Assembly: GCA_934155645.1 (NCBI GenBank)
Contig: CAKPHC010000007.1
Coordinates: forward strand, 9,475-73,474
From: an uncultured Bacilli bacterium
GTDB taxonomy: Bacteria; Bacillota_I; Bacilli_A; RF39; UBA660
Direction of reading: 5' to 3'
DNA: 64,000 bases
Below are positions 40,275 to 46,728 of the stretch, piece by piece; within the stretch, counting starts at the first letter, position 1, and each line of letters begins with the position of its first letter. The position numbers and the translations under genes are program-made. The notes beneath the pieces are model-generated. The model ran no database searches. It was given only the letters and a program-made list of their open reading frames with translations, and was not told the origin of the DNA.

Positions 40275-42107
40275 TTACAATTTTTTCCCTTTATAGAATA
40301 TTCTAGTGGCATTTAATACCGTTATTACGGTTACACCAATATCTGCGAATACTGCCATAATGATTGATGATAAGCCAAATGCTCCTAGAGCTAGAACTAC
40401 AAATTTGATTATTAGAGCAAAAATAATATTTTCCCAAACTATTTTGTTTGTGTAATTGCTGATTTTAATGGCTTTAGTTATATTTAATAGGTTATCGTTC
40501 ATTACTACAATATCACTTGCTTCAATTGCGGCATCACTTCCGATACTACCCATTGATATTCCAAGGTCAGAGTTTAATAACACAATAGCGTCATTAATTC
40601 CATCACCAACAAAGCATACTTTACTATCACATCTTAATTCATTAACTACATCTTTCTTATCAATTGGTTTTAATCCAGATTTATACTGACTAATATTAAG
40701 AGTATTACAAACGTCTTTAACGATTGATTCATTATCTCCAGATAAAACAACTATATTATTTTTATTTAAATCTTTCATTTGTTTAAAGAATTCTTTTGCT
40801 TCCGCTTTAATAACATCACCAATTATAATATTTCCTATATATTTATTGTTTTTTACTACATATACGATAGAACCAACATCATTACACTCTTCTACTTTAA
40901 CTTTATTCTTTTTTAAATAATTGTAGTTACCAATTAAGACATCATCATTATCAATTTTTACTTTAATACCACCGTCTTGTTCTTTAAAATCAGTTATCTT
41001 TTTATTATCAATTTTTTTATTGTAATAAGTTTTAATAGAGTTTGCAATTGGATGATTAGAATGATATTCACTATATGCTGCTAGTTTAATTAATTCTTCT
41101 TTAGTTCCTTCTTTAACATTTATCTTTTTAACTTCAAAGTTTCCTTCGGTAATAGTACCTGTCTTATCAAAAACAAAAGTATCTATTTTTGCTAGTTGTT
41201 CTAAGTCACTACTACTTTTAATTAAAACTCCATGACGTGACGCTAGACCTATTCCACAGAAGTATCCTAAAGGTACTGATAATATTAAGGCACATGGACA
41301 TGATGCCACTAAAAAGATTAGTGCTCGATAAAGCCAAGTATTTAATTCTCCATTAAAGAATATTACTGGAACCAAGAAGATTAAAAGTGATGATATTACT
41401 ACAAATGGTGTATATTTACTAGCAAATTTATTAATAAATTTTTGAGTTCTAGATTTTTTTACATCTGACTCTTCGATAACTTTTAATATTCTTGAAGCGG
41501 TTGACTCTTTAAATAAAGTTGTAACTTTTACTTCTATAATTCCATTTAAATTTATATAACCGGAATAAACTTCTTTATCTTTTGATACATCTCTTGGAAT
41601 AGACTCTCCTGTAATACTAGAAGTATCAACACTACTGTTTCCTTTTACAACTATTCCATCTATTGGTACTCTTTCTCCTGGTCTTACTATTATGGTGTCA
41701 CCAATATTTAAATTTTCTGGTTTTATTACTTCTTCTTTACCATCTTTTAATATTGTTGCTTTGTCACTTCTTAAATCAACTAAGTTTTTAATTGAATCTT
41801 TTGATTTATCTATTCCTAAGTCATTAATATATTCACCTATCTCATAGAAAAGCATAACAGCAACACCTTCTTTATATTCTTTAATAAAGAAAGCACCTAT
41901 TGTTGCTAGAGTCATTAAAAAATTTTCTTCGAAAATTTCACCTTTTTTAAAGTTTTCGATAACTCTTATAAATGTTTCATATCCAATTATGATATATGTA
42001 ATTATTAATACTATTAAAGATAGTTTTTCATCTAGAAAGAAACTAATTATATATAGTATTAAGCTGATAATTATGCGAATTAAATCTTTATTAATAAATT
42101 TAAGCAT
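40275..42107 (-). CDS. cadA: Heavy-metal (Cd/Zn-type) P1B-type ATPase without N-terminal HMA domain
   Basis: CPC motif (SCPCAL), DKTGT phosphorylation site and GDGIND. Starts directly with TM helices. Overlaps the cadC-like gene. Confidence 0.8.
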   Translation of the reverse strand: MLKFINKDLIRIIISLILYIISFFLDEKLSLIVLIITYIIIGYETFIRVIENFKKGEIFEENFLMTLATIGAFFIKEYKEGVAVMLFYEIGEYINDLGIDKSKDSIKNLVDLRSDKATILKDGKEEVIKPENLNIGDTIIVRPGERVPIDGIVVKGNSSVDTSSITGESIPRDVSKDKEVYSGYINLNGIIEVKVTTLFKESTASRILKVIEESDVKKSRTQKFINKFASKYTPFVVISSLLIFLVPVIFFNGELNTWLYRALIFLVASCPCALILSVPLGYFCGIGLASRHGVLIKSSSDLEQLAKIDTFVFDKTGTITEGNFEVKKINVKEGTKEELIKLAAYSEYHSNHPIANSIKTYYNKKIDNKKITDFKEQDGGIKVKIDNDDVLIGNYNYLKKNKVKVEECNDVGSIVYVVKNNKYIGNIIIGDVIKAEAKEFFKQMKDLNKNNIVVLSGDNESIVKDVCNTLNISQYKSGLKPIDKKDVVNELRCDSKVCFVGDGINDAIVLLNSDLGISMGSIGSDAAIEASDIVVMNDNLLNITKAIKISNYTNKIVWENIIFALIIKFVVLALGAFGLSSIIMAVFADIGVTVITVLNATRIFYKGKKL

Positions 42108-42465
42108 TTTTCTCCTCCATTATATGTTCTATTCCAATATTTAGTATTACTTCTACGTGACTATCACCTAATGAGTAATACACTTCTTTTCCTTCTTTTC
42201 TAGTTTTAACCAAATCCATATCTCTTAATACTTTTAATTGATGACTTATTGCTGAATGAGTCATATTAAGTAAATTGGATATATCGCATACACAAAGTTC
42301 CTTGTTTAAAAGTGATAAAAGTATCCTTACTCTTGTATCATCTCCAAAAACTTTGAATAATAAAGATAATTTTGAAGAATAGTAATTATCTATCATGTTT
42401 TCTCTTACAAATTCAATGTTATCATTATGAATTTTTTCTTCTTGGCACTCTACTTGATTTTCCAT
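42100..42465 (-). CDS. cadC: ArsR/SmtB-family metalloregulator (CadC-like)
   Basis: HTH with metal-site Cys in CVCDIS and HQLKVL. Precedes cadA. Confidence 0.75.
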   Translation of the reverse strand: MENQVECQEEKIHNDNIEFVRENMIDNYYSSKLSLLFKVFGDDTRVRILLSLLNKELCVCDISNLLNMTHSAISHQLKVLRDMDLVKTRKEGKEVYYSLGDSHVEVILNIGIEHIMEEKNA

Positions 42466-42484
42466 GTATCCTCCTCATATGAAT

Positions 42485-42504
42485 AACTGTTCATATATTA
42501 TATT
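42485..42504. promoter_or_regulatory. Candidate CadC/ArsR operator (ATATGAA-N6-TTCATAT)
   Basis: Imperfect palindrome with TGAA...TTCA half sites about 20 nt upstream of the cadC start. Confidence 0.45.
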
Positions 42505-42579: not shown

Positions 42580-42912
42580 TTAGAAAGGATTAGCCATTAT
42601 CTTAATAACTAAATCCATATTATCATCATGAGCCATAATGTTTCGCTTTATTGCACCACATTTATTACATTTATAAACGATTTTATATTTTCCCTTTTTA
42701 GCATTTTCTACTCCTATTGGTTCTAGAATACCATGACAAGGCGATAATCTGTCACCTGGGTTAATATCTAAGTGCTTTGATGATAAGCAATAAGGACAAT
42801 GGTCCCTTGCTGTATAACCTAATGGTTCTATTTTTTTACCACATACTTCACATAAAAAACTTTCGTCAATCATTTTAAATCTTTTCTGTTGTTCCATAAT
42901 TACTAACTCCAT
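42580..42912 (-). CDS. RNHCP-domain zinc-ribbon protein
   Basis: RDHCPYCLSSKH and CNKCG motifs. Confidence 0.6.
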   Translation of the reverse strand: MELVIMEQQKRFKMIDESFLCEVCGKKIEPLGYTARDHCPYCLSSKHLDINPGDRLSPCHGILEPIGVENAKKGKYKIVYKCNKCGAIKRNIMAHDDNMDLVIKIMANPF

Positions 42913-43309: not shown

Positions 43310-44587
43310 TTAAATGGAAATAATTATGTCTTGAACAAAGAAATTTTGAAATATTTTAGTCTCTAATTGATATATATCTTTATTCTTTGTTATATTTCTT
43401 ATTATTTCCTTCTTTATATTTTCTTCGGTTGTGGAATATTTAATTTTATTGAGTTGTTTAGGTATCGGTTCATCATCAAAGCTATTGGCAACTGTAATAT
43501 GAATTTTTCCGTTTTCTTCATACATTTGAATACTTACCATTTTTTCTTTGTTATTCTTAGATGACTCAATGGCACTGTCTAGTAAGATTCCCATTATTGT
43601 ATATAAGTCATTAACATCTTCTTTTGATAATTCTTTCATTCTTGCGACCGATGGACTCACTAAAATTTCAGGAGTAATTCCGGCGGTTTTCATTTCGGTC
43701 ATCTTTAAATTAATGAATCCTTTCATCCCTAAAATAGGAATATTATTAAATTCTTTTAGCCACTCAGAAGTAATACTTTCTTTTTCATTAACTAGTTTGT
43801 CGACGTACTGGCTAGCTTCTTTTTTATTCTTACTAAGGAGTTTTTTTATAGTTATTAAGTTGTTTTCCCTTTCTCTTAGAGTACGATGGTATTCTTCCAT
43901 TAAAGTTCCATTTGATTTAGCATAGCTAGATATTTCAACATACATTTTTGAAATCATATCCATTTTATTTTCCTTATCGATAATGGCTCCAGTAATTATA
44001 GTTATTAATACTATGATAACAATATCATATAATAGATTAAAATCACGTTTCATGTATGGCATTCTTATTAAGAACACAGATATTAAAGAGAAATAAATTA
44101 ATGTAAATATAACAAAACTATGGCAAGGTTCATTGTTAACTTTTTTAATAACTTTATTCATTATTCTTTGCATTAATATAAAGATTTCTAATGCGATAAT
44201 GGCAGAACAAACATTAGAATTAAATTTTTCTATTGGCAACAAGTTTGTAGCATATATAACACTCGGATGAAATAATCCAAATGCAATTAATACAATTTCT
44301 ACTAACATACGAATTACGTATATAAACAGTGATACTAATAATGTTTTGGCTAACTTTTGTTTAAAAATAATTTTTTGAAACACAACTACTGACATATAAT
44401 AGAAAAATATAGTAAATAGTGGTGTAAAATTATAAATATTTATTACAAAAGATGTAACATATATTACAAACGCTATTATTATATCGCTGTGATTTAATTT
44501 CTGCTTTGGATAAATGATTTTGCTTTTTAGAAATATAGTTAAAGCAAAAATAGTACCATTAATTATACTTAAAATAAACTGCTGCAT
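43310..44587 (-). CDS. Membrane sensor histidine kinase, AgrC/ComD-like (HPK10)
   Basis: Six or more N-terminal TM helices plus a C-terminal GHKL ATPase domain. Paired with the LytTR regulator. Confidence 0.65.
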   Translation of the reverse strand: MQQFILSIINGTIFALTIFLKSKIIYPKQKLNHSDIIIAFVIYVTSFVINIYNFTPLFTIFFYYMSVVVFQKIIFKQKLAKTLLVSLFIYVIRMLVEIVLIAFGLFHPSVIYATNLLPIEKFNSNVCSAIIALEIFILMQRIMNKVIKKVNNEPCHSFVIFTLIYFSLISVFLIRMPYMKRDFNLLYDIVIIVLITIITGAIIDKENKMDMISKMYVEISSYAKSNGTLMEEYHRTLRERENNLITIKKLLSKNKKEASQYVDKLVNEKESITSEWLKEFNNIPILGMKGFINLKMTEMKTAGITPEILVSPSVARMKELSKEDVNDLYTIMGILLDSAIESSKNNKEKMVSIQMYEENGKIHITVANSFDDEPIPKQLNKIKYSTTEENIKKEIIRNITKNKDIYQLETKIFQNFFVQDIIISI

Positions 44588-44594
44588 GATAAAC

Positions 44595-45320
44595 CTATAA
44601 CCTTTCTTTTAATTCTCTTTTTTTATTTCTAGCAATTAAATCTATTTGTTTATTTGGGAAAAAAATAATATTATTTGCTAAGTCAACACTTGATACATTA
44701 CTTAAGTTAACAATGCAACTTCTATGTGTCTTCATGAATCGTTGGTCATTTGATAACGTTTCTTCTAAATGTTGAATTGTATCTCTTGTAAAGTATTCTC
44801 CATCGTTAGTAACAATCTTACAGTTGTTATTATTTAGGCTTTTTTCAATATACAAAATTTGATTGTATGGTATTTGATATAGTTCGCCATTTAGTGTAAA
44901 AGTTATAGATTTTTGTTTAGTAAAAATACCTACAGCTACCCCCAATGTTTCTCTTAATTCTTTTTCTATATCAGAGTATTTTGATATAAAATCTAACATC
45001 AATAATTTACTTGTATATCCAATATTACTGTATTGTTCATGACTGGTAATAACTATTATTTGACTACTCCAATCACCATTATTTCGTATTTGTCTTGCCA
45101 AATCTAGACCTGATTTACCTGGAACCTCTACATCTAATAGATATATTTTGTTACCATCAATGTTATTTAGTTTCTTCTCTGCCTCTTGGTCATATTTATC
45201 TATTTCTATAATTTTGAAATTATTGTTATTAGCACCAATTAGTTTTAAAATTATTTTTTTGTATCTTTCACGCATTTCTTTGCCATCTTCATATAACACA
45301 AAATTAATCATTATGTACAC
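44595..45320 (-). CDS. LytTR-family response regulator (AgrA-like)
   Basis: Receiver domain (LLDVEVPGKSGLDLA) plus a C-terminal LytTR DNA-binding domain. Confidence 0.7.
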   Translation of the reverse strand: MYIMINFVLYEDGKEMRERYKKIILKLIGANNNNFKIIEIDKYDQEAEKKLNNIDGNKIYLLDVEVPGKSGLDLARQIRNNGDWSSQIIVITSHEQYSNIGYTSKLLMLDFISKYSDIEKELRETLGVAVGIFTKQKSITFTLNGELYQIPYNQILYIEKSLNNNNCKIVTNDGEYFTRDTIQHLEETLSNDQRFMKTHRSCIVNLSNVSSVDLANNIIFFPNKQIDLIARNKKRELKERL

Positions 45321-45451
45321 CTTCGCTTTTCAAAAAAGATTGTATCATAGCATTTTTAAAAAATATGAAAACGTGGCTCAAATGTTAATATTTGGCTGGC
45401 AAATGTATTTTTTGACGAAAAAAAGCACTTTTTGTGCATTTAAGCACAACT

Positions 45452-45480
45452 TTTCAACCAAAAAAAGAACGGCTCACGCT
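45452..45480 (-). terminator. Rho-independent terminator
   Basis: On the minus strand: AAGAACAGCGTGAGCCGTTCTT hairpin followed by TTTTTTT. Confidence 0.5.
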
Positions 45481-45484
45481 GTTC

Positions 45485-45949
45485 TTATTCACAAGTACAT
45501 TTTTTACCTTCGTGGCAACCGCATGTACACTCTTCATCGCAATTTTCTTCTTTATTATCATTGCAACCACAAGTGCATTCGCTTCCGCATTGGCAATTGT
45601 CATCACATGTGCATTCCTTTCCTTCATGACAACCACAAGTGCAGTTTTCATCACATTTTTTATCTTTTTCCATTTCCATAATTTCACCTCCAATTATTTT
45701 TTCTATGTATTTGCTTATTCTTGCAAAATTTTCTTTTTCTAGTTGATATACTACTTTGTTTCCTTTTTTAATTGGCATAACTAATCTAGCATCTGTTAAA
45801 GCTTTCATATGATGCGACAATGTTGGCTGAGTTACGTTCAAATTTTCCAGAATATTGCAACCGCAGACATTGTGTTTTGATAATATTTCTATTATCTTTA
45901 ACCTATTCTCATCAGCTAAAATTTTAAATAATTCAGATAAATTTGTCAT
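45485..45949 (-). CDS. ArsR/SmtB-family regulator fused to a C-terminal Cys-rich metallothionein-like repeat tail
   Basis: N-terminal HTH (LADENRLKIIEIL ... TLSHHMKAL). C-terminal about 60 aa made of three repeats of CTCGC(H/N)(E/D)GK(E/K)CTC containing 20 Cys. Confidence 0.7.
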   Translation of the reverse strand: MTNLSELFKILADENRLKIIEILSKHNVCGCNILENLNVTQPTLSHHMKALTDARLVMPIKKGNKVVYQLEKENFARISKYIEKIIGGEIMEMEKDKKCDENCTCGCHEGKECTCDDNCQCGSECTCGCNDNKEENCDEECTCGCHEGKKCTCE

Positions 45950-45972
45950 AGTTATCCTCTAATCTATATAGA

Positions 45973-45992
45973 TGAACATCTATATACTTATA
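45973..45992. promoter_or_regulatory. Candidate ArsR-type operator: perfect 9-2-9 palindrome ATATAGATG-AA-CATCTATAT
   Basis: Located about 25 nt upstream of the ArsR-metallothionein gene start. Confidence 0.5.
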
Positions 45993-46025
45993 TATTAATA
46001 CTTTTAAGTTTAAAATTCAAGATAT

Positions 46026-46056
46026 AACTAAAAAAAGTTTCTAAATTATAGAAACT
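46026..46056 (-). terminator. Rho-independent terminator
   Basis: AGTTTCTA-loop-TAGAAACT followed by TTTTTTT on the minus strand. Confidence 0.55.
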
Positions 46057-46728
46057 TTACAAAATTTTCTTTTTAACTTTTTGAATTACTTCATCTTTTA
46101 AATGGCTTTTATTCAAGTAATTTGGATGATATGTCCATATTACTCCTTTGTTACTATCTATTAATACTGGATTTTGAACAGTTGGACGATTATCTACTAA
46201 ATCTGAACTAAGATTTTTTAAGACTTCATTTGTTATTGTCAAATAAGGCTTTTTAGGTCCATTTACAAATATTGTATATTCTGGTTTAAAATAATCATGT
46301 AAATAAATTAAATATTTAATACTTATATCTTCTAGTTCTTGAGTCATTTTAGGATTACCGATACTAGTTCTTTTACTAGAGATAATAGTGTTATTCCAAA
46401 TAACATTTTTAGATAACTCTTCTCTTGATATTTCCAAGCAATCTCTAATAAATCTCCAAAAGTCCTTGTTATTAGCGCATCTTTGGGCTAAGAAGTCAAA
46501 GTATTCTTGTTCAACTTTCTCTACATCAGGCATATAATTAATATTTTCATGATTCAACCAGCAATTTGTTTCTTGACCAATATATAAGATTTTTCTATTT
46601 AGTCCATTTATATAATTATCATCTGATGATACTAATAATGGAATTGCCAAATCTTGTGCTTGTATAAAATTATAGCAACGCTTTAACACATATTTATTAC
46701 GCTCTCTTAATTCACTCACAAAACCCAT
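46057..46728 (-). CDS. Hypothetical protein (223 aa)
   Basis: Long ORF with a terminator downstream and no recognisable motif. Confidence 0.4.
   Translation of the reverse strand: MGFVSELRERNKYVLKRCYNFIQAQDLAIPLLVSSDDNYINGLNRKILYIGQETNCWLNHENINYMPDVEKVEQEYFDFLAQRCANNKDFWRFIRDCLEISREELSKNVIWNNTIISSKRTSIGNPKMTQELEDISIKYLIYLHDYFKPEYTIFVNGPKKPYLTITNEVLKNLSSDLVDNRPTVQNPVLIDSNKGVIWTYHPNYLNKSHLKDEVIQKVKKKIL

Follow-up and report, generated by a model that had tools for sequence, protein, structure and literature searches.

Can one polypeptide both sense a toxic metal or metalloid and sequester it? The question is raised by arsR-MT, a gene on the minus strand (45485-45949) of a 64,000-nucleotide (64-kb) stretch of contig CAKPHC010000007.1 from an uncultured Bacilli bacterium, the whole of which is referred to here as the window. 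The gene is an uninterrupted open reading frame (ORF; stop codon at 45485-45487) for a 154-residue ArsR/SmtB repressor with a cysteine-rich C-terminal tail. A preliminary description of this DNA had proposed an ArsR-type helix-turn-helix (HTH) N-terminus fused to a metallothionein (MT)-like tail of SmtA type, a palindromic operator and a response to Zn, Cd or Cu. That interpretation was found to be right in architecture and wrong in the SmtA comparison, and was probably wrong in the metal preference. A sensor and a sponge in one polypeptide appear plausible from the sequence. The reading that we prefer, and put forward as a serious but tentative possibility, is that arsR-MT is an autorepressed single-gene sense-and-sequester module with a sensor drawn from the As(III)/Sb(III) ArsR clade.

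Architecture of the repressor-tail fusion

The N-terminal half matches PF01022 (HTH_5) at residues 13-57 (E=1.2e-11, 44.7 bits against a cutoff of 22) and the NCBIfam model NF033788 ('metalloregulator ArsR/SmtB') with 80.1 bits (cutoff 55); against NF007528 the 154-residue protein scored 51 bits, under the cutoff of 97. An AlphaFold2 model built with 88 relatives shows a confident winged helix over residues 1-85, with a predicted local distance difference test (pLDDT) score of 90-96 for residues 11-80, helices at 4-11, 14-25, 30-36, 43-53 and 72-85, and a beta wing at 57-70. This DNA-binding and dimerisation domain (45695-45949, minus strand) holds the cysteine pair C29-x-C31 and the recognition helix TQPTLSHHMK. 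A Foldseek search of the PDB with the model returned ArsR/SmtB-family structures only, with SrnR, CzrA, SmtB (the matches include 1smt and 1r1t), CadC and ArsR at the top, and the alignments span about 76-93 columns, the N-terminal domain alone. The domain is followed by a linker of residues 86-98 (IIGGEIMEMEKDK K; 45656-45694, minus strand), predicted to be disordered (pLDDT below 50 at residues 90-98) and differing in length between homologs, and then by the tail, residues 99-154 (45488-45655, minus strand), for which pLDDT is likewise low at 47-57.

Seventeen of the 56 tail residues are cysteines (30%), arranged in CxC and CxCxC motifs with the core C-x-C-G-C-x-E-G-K-x-C-T-C, and the remaining residues are limited to E, G, K, D, N, T, H, Q and S with no aromatic or aliphatic side chain among them. 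These are generic metallothionein traits: a short chain with about 30% Cys in CxC motifs, no aromatics and no stable apo-fold predicted. The tail is as cysteine-rich as had been described, but the 20 cysteines counted in it earlier are too many, as the whole protein has 19, namely C29 and C31 in helix alpha3 and the 17 of the tail. The three repeats of CTCGC(H/N)(E/D)GK(E/K)CTC that had been reported were recovered in part: of the three occurrences of CTCGC, the first and third run on as HEGK(E/K)CTC and the second as NDNKEENC.

No tandem repeat was detected in the coding DNA by TRF (Tandem Repeats Finder), and the repeat units are 62-78% identical; it follows that the tail repeats are old and that what has been preserved is their protein sequence, and a DNA tandem repeat or recent duplication was rejected as their origin. 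Overlapping antisense and alternative-frame ORFs do exist (45148-45681 and 45434-45742 on the plus strand, 45454-45693 on the minus strand), as the preliminary description had pointed out, but with the DNA only weakly repetitive they would stem from the stop-poor Cys, Glu, Lys and Gly codons and not from repetition.

Frameshift, a separate ORF and mis-assembly were looked at as sources of the tail and were rejected. Nineteen independent contigs in NCBI, ENA and Logan assemblies, up to 557 kb in length, encode the identical 154-residue protein, and 11 clusters of homologs share the architecture. Against a 97%-identical allele (L001) the tail shows five synonymous differences and one nonsynonymous difference (ratio of nonsynonymous to synonymous rates, dN/dS, about 0.03). 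All 17 cysteines are kept in a 63%-identical homolog (L005), eight of them through the other Cys codon; synonymous sites are saturated in this comparison (proportion of synonymous differences, pS, 0.96; of nonsynonymous differences, pN, 0.16). Judged by these codons, the tail is under strong purifying selection.

Operator, transcription unit and sensor clade

The gene is preceded by a perfect 10-2-10 palindrome, TATATAGATG-AA-CATCTATATA, at 45965-45986. It had been reported as a perfect 9-2-9 palindrome at 45973-45992; it is indeed perfect and real, but each arm is one nucleotide longer and the 20-nt string lies at 45966-45985, 7 nt from the position given. On the minus strand the order is TTGAAT, 17 nt, TAATAT, 5 nt, the palindrome, 4 nt, AGAGGA, 5 nt and ATG. 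The palindrome is thereby placed between the -10 box of a putative sigma-70-type promoter (45992-46020; TTGAAT at 46020-46015 and TAATAT at 45997-45992) and the ribosome-binding site AGAGGA (45955-45960), both read from the sequence of the minus strand, and its far end is 15 nt from the ATG. It is unique in the window even with three mismatches allowed, and 0.02 occurrences are expected by chance from shuffled sequence; no additional copy that could mark another member of a regulon was found in the 64 kb. A role as an RNA hairpin or attenuator was rejected, the fold reaching only -6.7 kcal/mol (z=-1.1).

The element was found at the same place, 5' of the start codon, in five fusion lineages whose proteins are 45-68% identical. 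In L005 it reads TATATAGAT-GATT-ATCTATATA, and in L004 and L067 TATATAGACG-AG-CGTCTATATA, where GATG/CATC has become GACG/CGTC, a paired change on both arms that leaves the symmetry intact. The L008 operator has one mismatch, L070 and L071 carry the same element at the same position, and a second, weaker copy was observed within the -35/-10 spacer of L008, L067 and L070. The palindrome, kept in front of fusion homologs of no more than 48-63% identity, is thus supported as an ArsR operator, as had been proposed, of a predicted 12-2-12-like type.

Further support comes from scans for the palindrome elsewhere. A genome scan with TATATAGAYG-NN-CRTCTATATA, taking one genome per species, gave 17 loci in very different phyla; the window's own species was not among the genomes returned. 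At least 10 of the 17 have an abutting ArsR-family gene, and the neighbours are ACR3 (TIGR00832, 437 bits), a thioredoxin-type ArsC (TIGR02691, 216 bits) or an ArsP permease. Among 31 metagenome loci the ArsR start lies 8-16 nt from the palindrome in 15, with ACR3, ArsC, ArsD or ArsA next in 11 of these 15, and the sole match of 27% GC is the fusion gene itself. The palindrome occurs 5' of arsR-acr3-arsC, arsRBC and arsRDA(-acr3) operons in many bacteria. About half of the exact matches in the two scans have no detectable ArsR neighbour (L013, L019, L022, L038, L044 and others; some have 50-60% GC, and one is on an archaeal contig); chance could account for them, or they may be operators of more distant regulators.

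The best annotated plasmid relatives are the arsRBC operon repressor from Staphylococcus xylosus (47% identical), with TATATAGATGTTAATCTATTAA upstream, and that from the Clostridium tyrobutyricum arsR-arsD-arsA-acr3 operon (53% identical), with TATATAGATAGCTATCTATATA upstream; each of these sequences is a variant of the operator. The ArsR of pSX267 binds a dyad inside the ars promoter, according to Rosenstein et al. (1994) as cited in PMC3598800. Compared with the ArsR proteins of S. aureus pI258 and S. xylosus pSX267, the window protein is 47% identical in the winged helix (residues 4-80), has an identical recognition helix (QPTLSHHMK) and the alpha3 C-x-C pair, and is preceded by the same operator type just 5' of the ribosome-binding site (TATATAGATGTTAATCTATTAA in S. 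xylosus, TATATAGATGTTCATCTATATA here); autorepression is expected in both. Unlike those proteins, it has Lys in place of their third alpha3 Cys (SCGE...) and a 56-residue, 17-Cys tail in place of their short C-terminal CxC...C, and no arsB, acr3 or arsC follows it or occurs in the window.

The recognition helix QPTLSHH and the alpha3 pair are invariant across the fusion and its ars-operon relatives, with C29 present in 88 of 88 relatives and C31 in 87 of 88 (C29-G-C31 here). The alpha5 zinc site D-x-H...H-x-x-E/H is absent, the alpha5 region being YQLEKENFARISKYIEKII with no His. From the operator shared with ars operons, and from the invariant recognition helix and alpha3 pair, the DNA-binding half and its operator are therefore placed in the As(III)/Sb(III)-sensing Firmicute ArsR clade and not with the SmtB/CzrA zinc sensors.

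The transcription unit appears to be a single gene. An intrinsic-terminator-like hairpin followed by U7 lies directly after the stop codon (45458-45486, minus strand; RNA fold -8.4 kcal/mol), where a strict terminator scan made no call, and the upstream gene (46057-46728) ends in a 10-bp inverted repeat, AAAGTTTCTA/TAGAAACTTT, followed by TTTTTT (46030-46058, minus strand). With a hairpin and T-run on both sides, arsR-MT looks monocistronic.

Distribution of the fusion, the tail module and genomic contexts

A k-mer and HMMER search of 5.8 billion clusters with the whole protein gave eight clusters containing both parts, and a profile of these eight added three more (P0310, P0311 and P0312), making 11 in total. 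A gap in score separates fusions (at least 166 bits) from ordinary ArsRs (at most 129 bits), and more than 4,000 related tail-less ArsRs were found at E<=1e-10. The database search that the preliminary description had suggested thus revealed no common annotated family. In a neighbour-joining tree of the HTH domain only, covering the eight fusions found before P0310-P0312, these eight form an exclusive clade; this favours a single origin of the fusion, after which the lineages diverged to about 50% identity. P0314 appears to be a tail-less sister of P0008.

No description of a natural ArsR-MT fusion was found in the literature searched, and the fusion is apparently a rare, undescribed variant of a well-known regulator family. 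A 'thioredoxin-metallothionein chimera' (PMC13578184), the TrxA of Runella, was considered as a natural precedent and rejected; its thioredoxin part is 96% identical to enterobacterial TrxA and its MT part 98% identical to Synechococcus SmtA, and it looks like an expression-vector fusion contaminating the assembly. A plasmid origin of the locus was also rejected: megablast gave no match, and tblastn against plasmids returned tail-less ArsRs only, with none of 680 records covering at least 80% of the query.

The tail has no family match in Pfam or NCBIfam. The bacterial SmtA family, PF02069, whose members share a zinc-finger-like fold and conserve His and aromatic residues, did not match it in a Pfam scan at E<=10, NCBIfam gave no match at that threshold either, and the SmtA-type homology that had been suggested was rejected. 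Weak similarities were observed to Diptera MT (PF02067, E=0.039, under the gathering score) and to the snail Cd-MT 6qk5 (E=0.36 in the PDB). The tail is like these proteins in its high Cys content, CxC and CxCxxxC spacing, lack of aromatics and predicted disorder of the apo-state; it is unlike them in that the similarity is not significant and that the bacterial module is strongly acidic and has its own motif, CxCGCxEGKxCTC. The tail peptide motifs are absent from the literature searched.

A HMMER search with the tail alone against 1.84 billion representatives gave three matches at E<=0.001; this yield was attributed to composition-bias correction, and the k-mer and profile search was more informative. 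The tail profile recovered more than 100 clusters of free-standing, unannotated proteins, 33-64 residues long (P0121, P0129, P0132, P0147, P0172 and others; loci L026-L032), for example MSKKKKCNCSENCTCGCQEGKECTCDGKCTCGCQEGKECTCDKNKKETK; they share the motif CxCGCxEGKxCTC, and neither Pfam nor NCBIfam has a model for them. The module also occurs N-terminal to GrpE (P0112, P0115, P0116, P0118 and P0179, the last in L035), inserted in DUF1292 proteins (P0124, P0154, P0202, P0211), at the C-terminus of a ferredoxin (P0175) and behind N-terminal signal peptides (P0119, P0145, P0164), the last presumably secreted or surface forms. Two free-standing genes were inspected and both lie in housekeeping contexts, one by a tRNA-editing domain and a deaminase and the other by BofA; neither locus has an ArsR neighbour or the operator, and a regulator-MT pairing for the free-standing module was rejected on these two of two loci.

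Two routes to the fused tail can be envisaged. Among the 88 relatives, 80 ordinary ArsRs have 0-5 C-terminal cysteines and the fusions 11-22. Many of the ordinary proteins end in CxC-x5-CxC (for example DCICKDKSKCECK), the spacing of CGCHEGKECTC in the tail, and because of this shared spacing the tail may have arisen by amplifying a C-terminal thiolate site, sensory or auxiliary in function, that the clade already had. Capture of a mobile module is equally possible, since the module is also found free-standing and in other fusions.

No partner genes are conserved across five contexts of the fusion, and by this comparison the operator is its only constant partner. In the lineage of the window the neighbours are a LytTR two-component system and a 223-residue protein. 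The latter (46057-46728, minus strand) adjoins arsR-MT upstream and matches neither Pfam nor NCBIfam; L005 (63% identical) shows synteny for the pair, and the protein is widespread in the same group of metagenome-assembled genomes, with 20 cluster members. The LytTR response regulator (44595-45320, minus strand) and a GHKL histidine kinase whose N-terminus passes through the membrane several times (43310-44587, minus strand) resemble an Agr-type system and are syntenic with the fusion gene in two lineages. Downstream of the kinase, related loci carry a 70-residue ORF and then an RNHCP-domain protein, to which 42580-42912 of the window corresponds by position and size only.

Other lineages have other neighbours. 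In L004 (1-8903) the fusion P0006 stands beside a tet(M/W/O/S) ribosomal-protection gene (1227 bits) and an IS3-type transposase, and the locus also carries a PadR regulator and a VirB4/TraG-type conjugation ATPase; the region is mobile-element-like. A rubredoxin-flavoprotein adjoins the fusion in L008. In the P0310/P0311 sub-clade (L067, 6890-8632; L070, 1620-3337) a VanZ and RDD membrane protein starts 40 nt past the stop, with only a weak hairpin in between.

A proposed sense-and-sequester circuit and its alternatives

If arsR-MT is such a module, a dimeric ArsR/SmtB repressor of pI258/pSX267 descent would recognise TATATAGATG-N2-CATCTATATA and, acting on the operator of its own monocistronic unit, should repress its own synthesis, as expected from an operator that sits between the -10 box and ribosome-binding site of its own gene. 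A thiophilic metal(loid) would then bind Cys29-x-Cys31 of alpha3, possibly with a tail Cys as third ligand since the usual third cysteine is missing, and this would free the dimer from DNA. The protein so induced would add 17 thiolates per monomer in a disordered tail that chelates the inducer. As the free inducer dropped, the apo-protein would rebind the operator. At three Cys per As, a chain could hold about five or six As.

Cyanobacterial SmtB-SmtA, BxmR-BmtA and AzuR-NmtA offer the nearest circuit, in that an ArsR/SmtB repressor governs a Cys-rich sequestering polypeptide through a 12-2-12-type inverted repeat, perfect or imperfect; such pairs sense and then express the sponge (PMC8790569). 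Here, unlike in those pairs, one gene and its single polypeptide would combine the two functions, the sensor has no SmtB-like alpha5 Zn site, the tail has no PF02069 match and is not homologous to SmtA or BmtA, and the operator is ars-type and not TGAACA-N2-TGTTCA. Engineers have also placed ArsR and metallothioneins such as that of Fucus under As-responsive control to chelate As(III) inside cells (PMC12871311). The logic of sensing and sequestering is the same, but those systems are synthetic and assembled from several parts, whereas arsR-MT is a natural single gene with a putative ligand.

Several observations weigh against the sense-and-sequester module or its arsenic specificity. As(III) or Sb(III) would be the most likely inducer by descent only, and no ACR3, ArsB, ArsC, ArsA, ArsD or ArsP homolog was found in the 64-kb window or beside any fusion homolog. 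The third alpha3 Cys is absent: position 25, Cys in 47 of the 88 relatives, is Lys here and K, D or N in all fusions, although two Cys are enough for induction of the R773 ArsR. The tail is strongly acidic, with 15 Asp and Glu against 5 Lys, and a module borne by GrpE and ferredoxin fits a general Zn, Cu or Fe or a redox role as well as it fits arsenic. The promoter in the window is weak by consensus and fell under the threshold of a promoter scan; L004, L008, L067 and L070 have a canonical TTGACA-17-TATAAT at the equivalent position. Finally, the VanZ/RDD gene of the P0310/P0311 sub-clade may be co-transcribed with the fusion, and the unit would then not be single-gene everywhere. Cd, Cu(I), Zn or Bi as inducer, or a redox role, is possible; the acidity and His residues of the tail, and the wide occurrence of its module, leave room for Cd, Zn, Cu(I) and the redox role.

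The alternative that survives best, unlikely in our view but deserving of weight, is that the tail, as a sensory antenna or buffer, adjusts the threshold, cooperativity or selectivity of the repressor (it might, say, fill first or pass metal on to the alpha3 site), and that the genes which matter physiologically lie elsewhere in the genome behind copies of this operator, an ars operon for instance. A C-terminal CxC or CxC-x5-CxC is already present in ordinary relatives, and with the third alpha3 Cys missing from all fusions a tail Cys may complete the site. ArsR sensors with C-terminal Cys sites also exist. The Acidithiobacillus ferrooxidans AfArsR (6j05; fold match, TMt 0.71) has cysteines in a flexible C-terminal extension as arsR-MT does, and its three C-terminal Cys are the only site, whereas arsR-MT retains the alpha3 CxC and has 17 Cys in repeated motifs in the extension. 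Repressor copy numbers, moreover, are normally too low for bulk sequestration. On the other hand, neither the window nor the 10-16 kb surrounding each homolog yielded a second operator, 17-22 Cys are far above the needs of a sensory site, autoregulation would lift the copy number upon induction, and one copy rides a mobile element as cargo, like a resistance gene.

Rather less probable is a sensor and sponge of metallothionein type for Zn, Cd or Cu(I), the ArsR half having been retuned away from arsenic, which comes closest to the specificity first proposed. The tail is MT-like with 30% Cys, its weak similarities are to PF02067 and 6qk5, its motif contains His and many acidic residues, and the stand-alone, GrpE and ferredoxin occurrences suggest a general metal role. 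A Cd/Zn P1B ATPase locus is also syntenic about 3 kb away. That locus holds a second ArsR (42100-42465, minus strand) about 3 kb downstream of arsR-MT, a CadC/CzrA-like protein that has both the CVC motif and, in alpha5, the DxH...H..E site; it is followed by the ATPase gene (40275-42107, minus strand) and has its own classic 12-2-12 operator, ATATGAACAGTTATTCATAT (42477-42496; TGAACA-N2-TATTCA). Divalent-metal efflux is therefore served here by a dedicated sensor that differs in DNA specificity. The absence of the alpha5 DxH...HxxE site from arsR-MT, the ars-type operator and closest relatives of its sensor half, and Pfam and PDB similarities below significance count further against this alternative and against the original Zn/Cd/Cu assignment.

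A thiol-redox or sulfur-stress sensor, in which Cys oxidation or persulfidation inactivates the repressor as in BigR and SqrR, seems improbable. The hosts are probably strict anaerobes (spoVA and sigma-factor context, 27% GC), weak NCBIfam similarity to BigR and TsoR and fold matches to SqrR and BigR were observed, and GrpE, a chaperone cofactor, and a ferredoxin both occur as fusion partners of the module. However, the scores are far under the cutoffs (BigR 37 against 155 bits, TsoR 50 against 115 bits), Cys29 and Cys31, judged by eye in the alignments, fall where the metal/As(III) site has its alpha3 CxC, and no redox enzyme is consistently linked. An artefact is scarcely credible, whether as a separate ORF joined to the gene by mis-assembly or a frameshift, or as a palindrome that is only a chance AT-rich repeat or an RNA hairpin. 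At 27% GC, AT palindromes do arise more easily by chance, and the transcript would include the operator, which might form an RNA fold; but the identical ORF on 19 contigs, the 11 clusters, the low dN/dS of the tail, the palindrome's chance expectation and ties to ArsR genes across phyla, and the weak RNA fold all speak otherwise.

ArsR/SmtB sensors are the textbook case of metal-site evolution on a constant scaffold, and SmtB/SmtA is the textbook sequestration circuit. If the sense-and-sequester reading is true, arsR-MT would be a minimal autoregulated circuit in which a sensor titrates its own ligand, useful for studies of feedback and threshold setting, and a ready-made part for arsenic and heavy-metal biosensing and bioremediation, where engineers now combine separate ArsR and MT parts. 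The fusion would also be an entry point to a Cys-rich module, unannotated and apparently widespread among gut and anaerobic Firmicutes. A broader proposal, which we regard as possible but doubtful, is that the CxCGCxEGKxCTC module is a new metallothionein family of anaerobic Firmicutes, occurring free, secreted or fused to GrpE, DUF1292, ferredoxin or ArsR, and that the ArsR fusion is a natural, mobile, single-gene sensor-chelator, a repressor that would buffer its own inducer and confer tolerance to As(III)/Sb(III) or soft metals without an efflux pump. For the ArsR family, the locus illustrates how a sensory tail of two to four cysteines could grow into a metallothionein-like domain.

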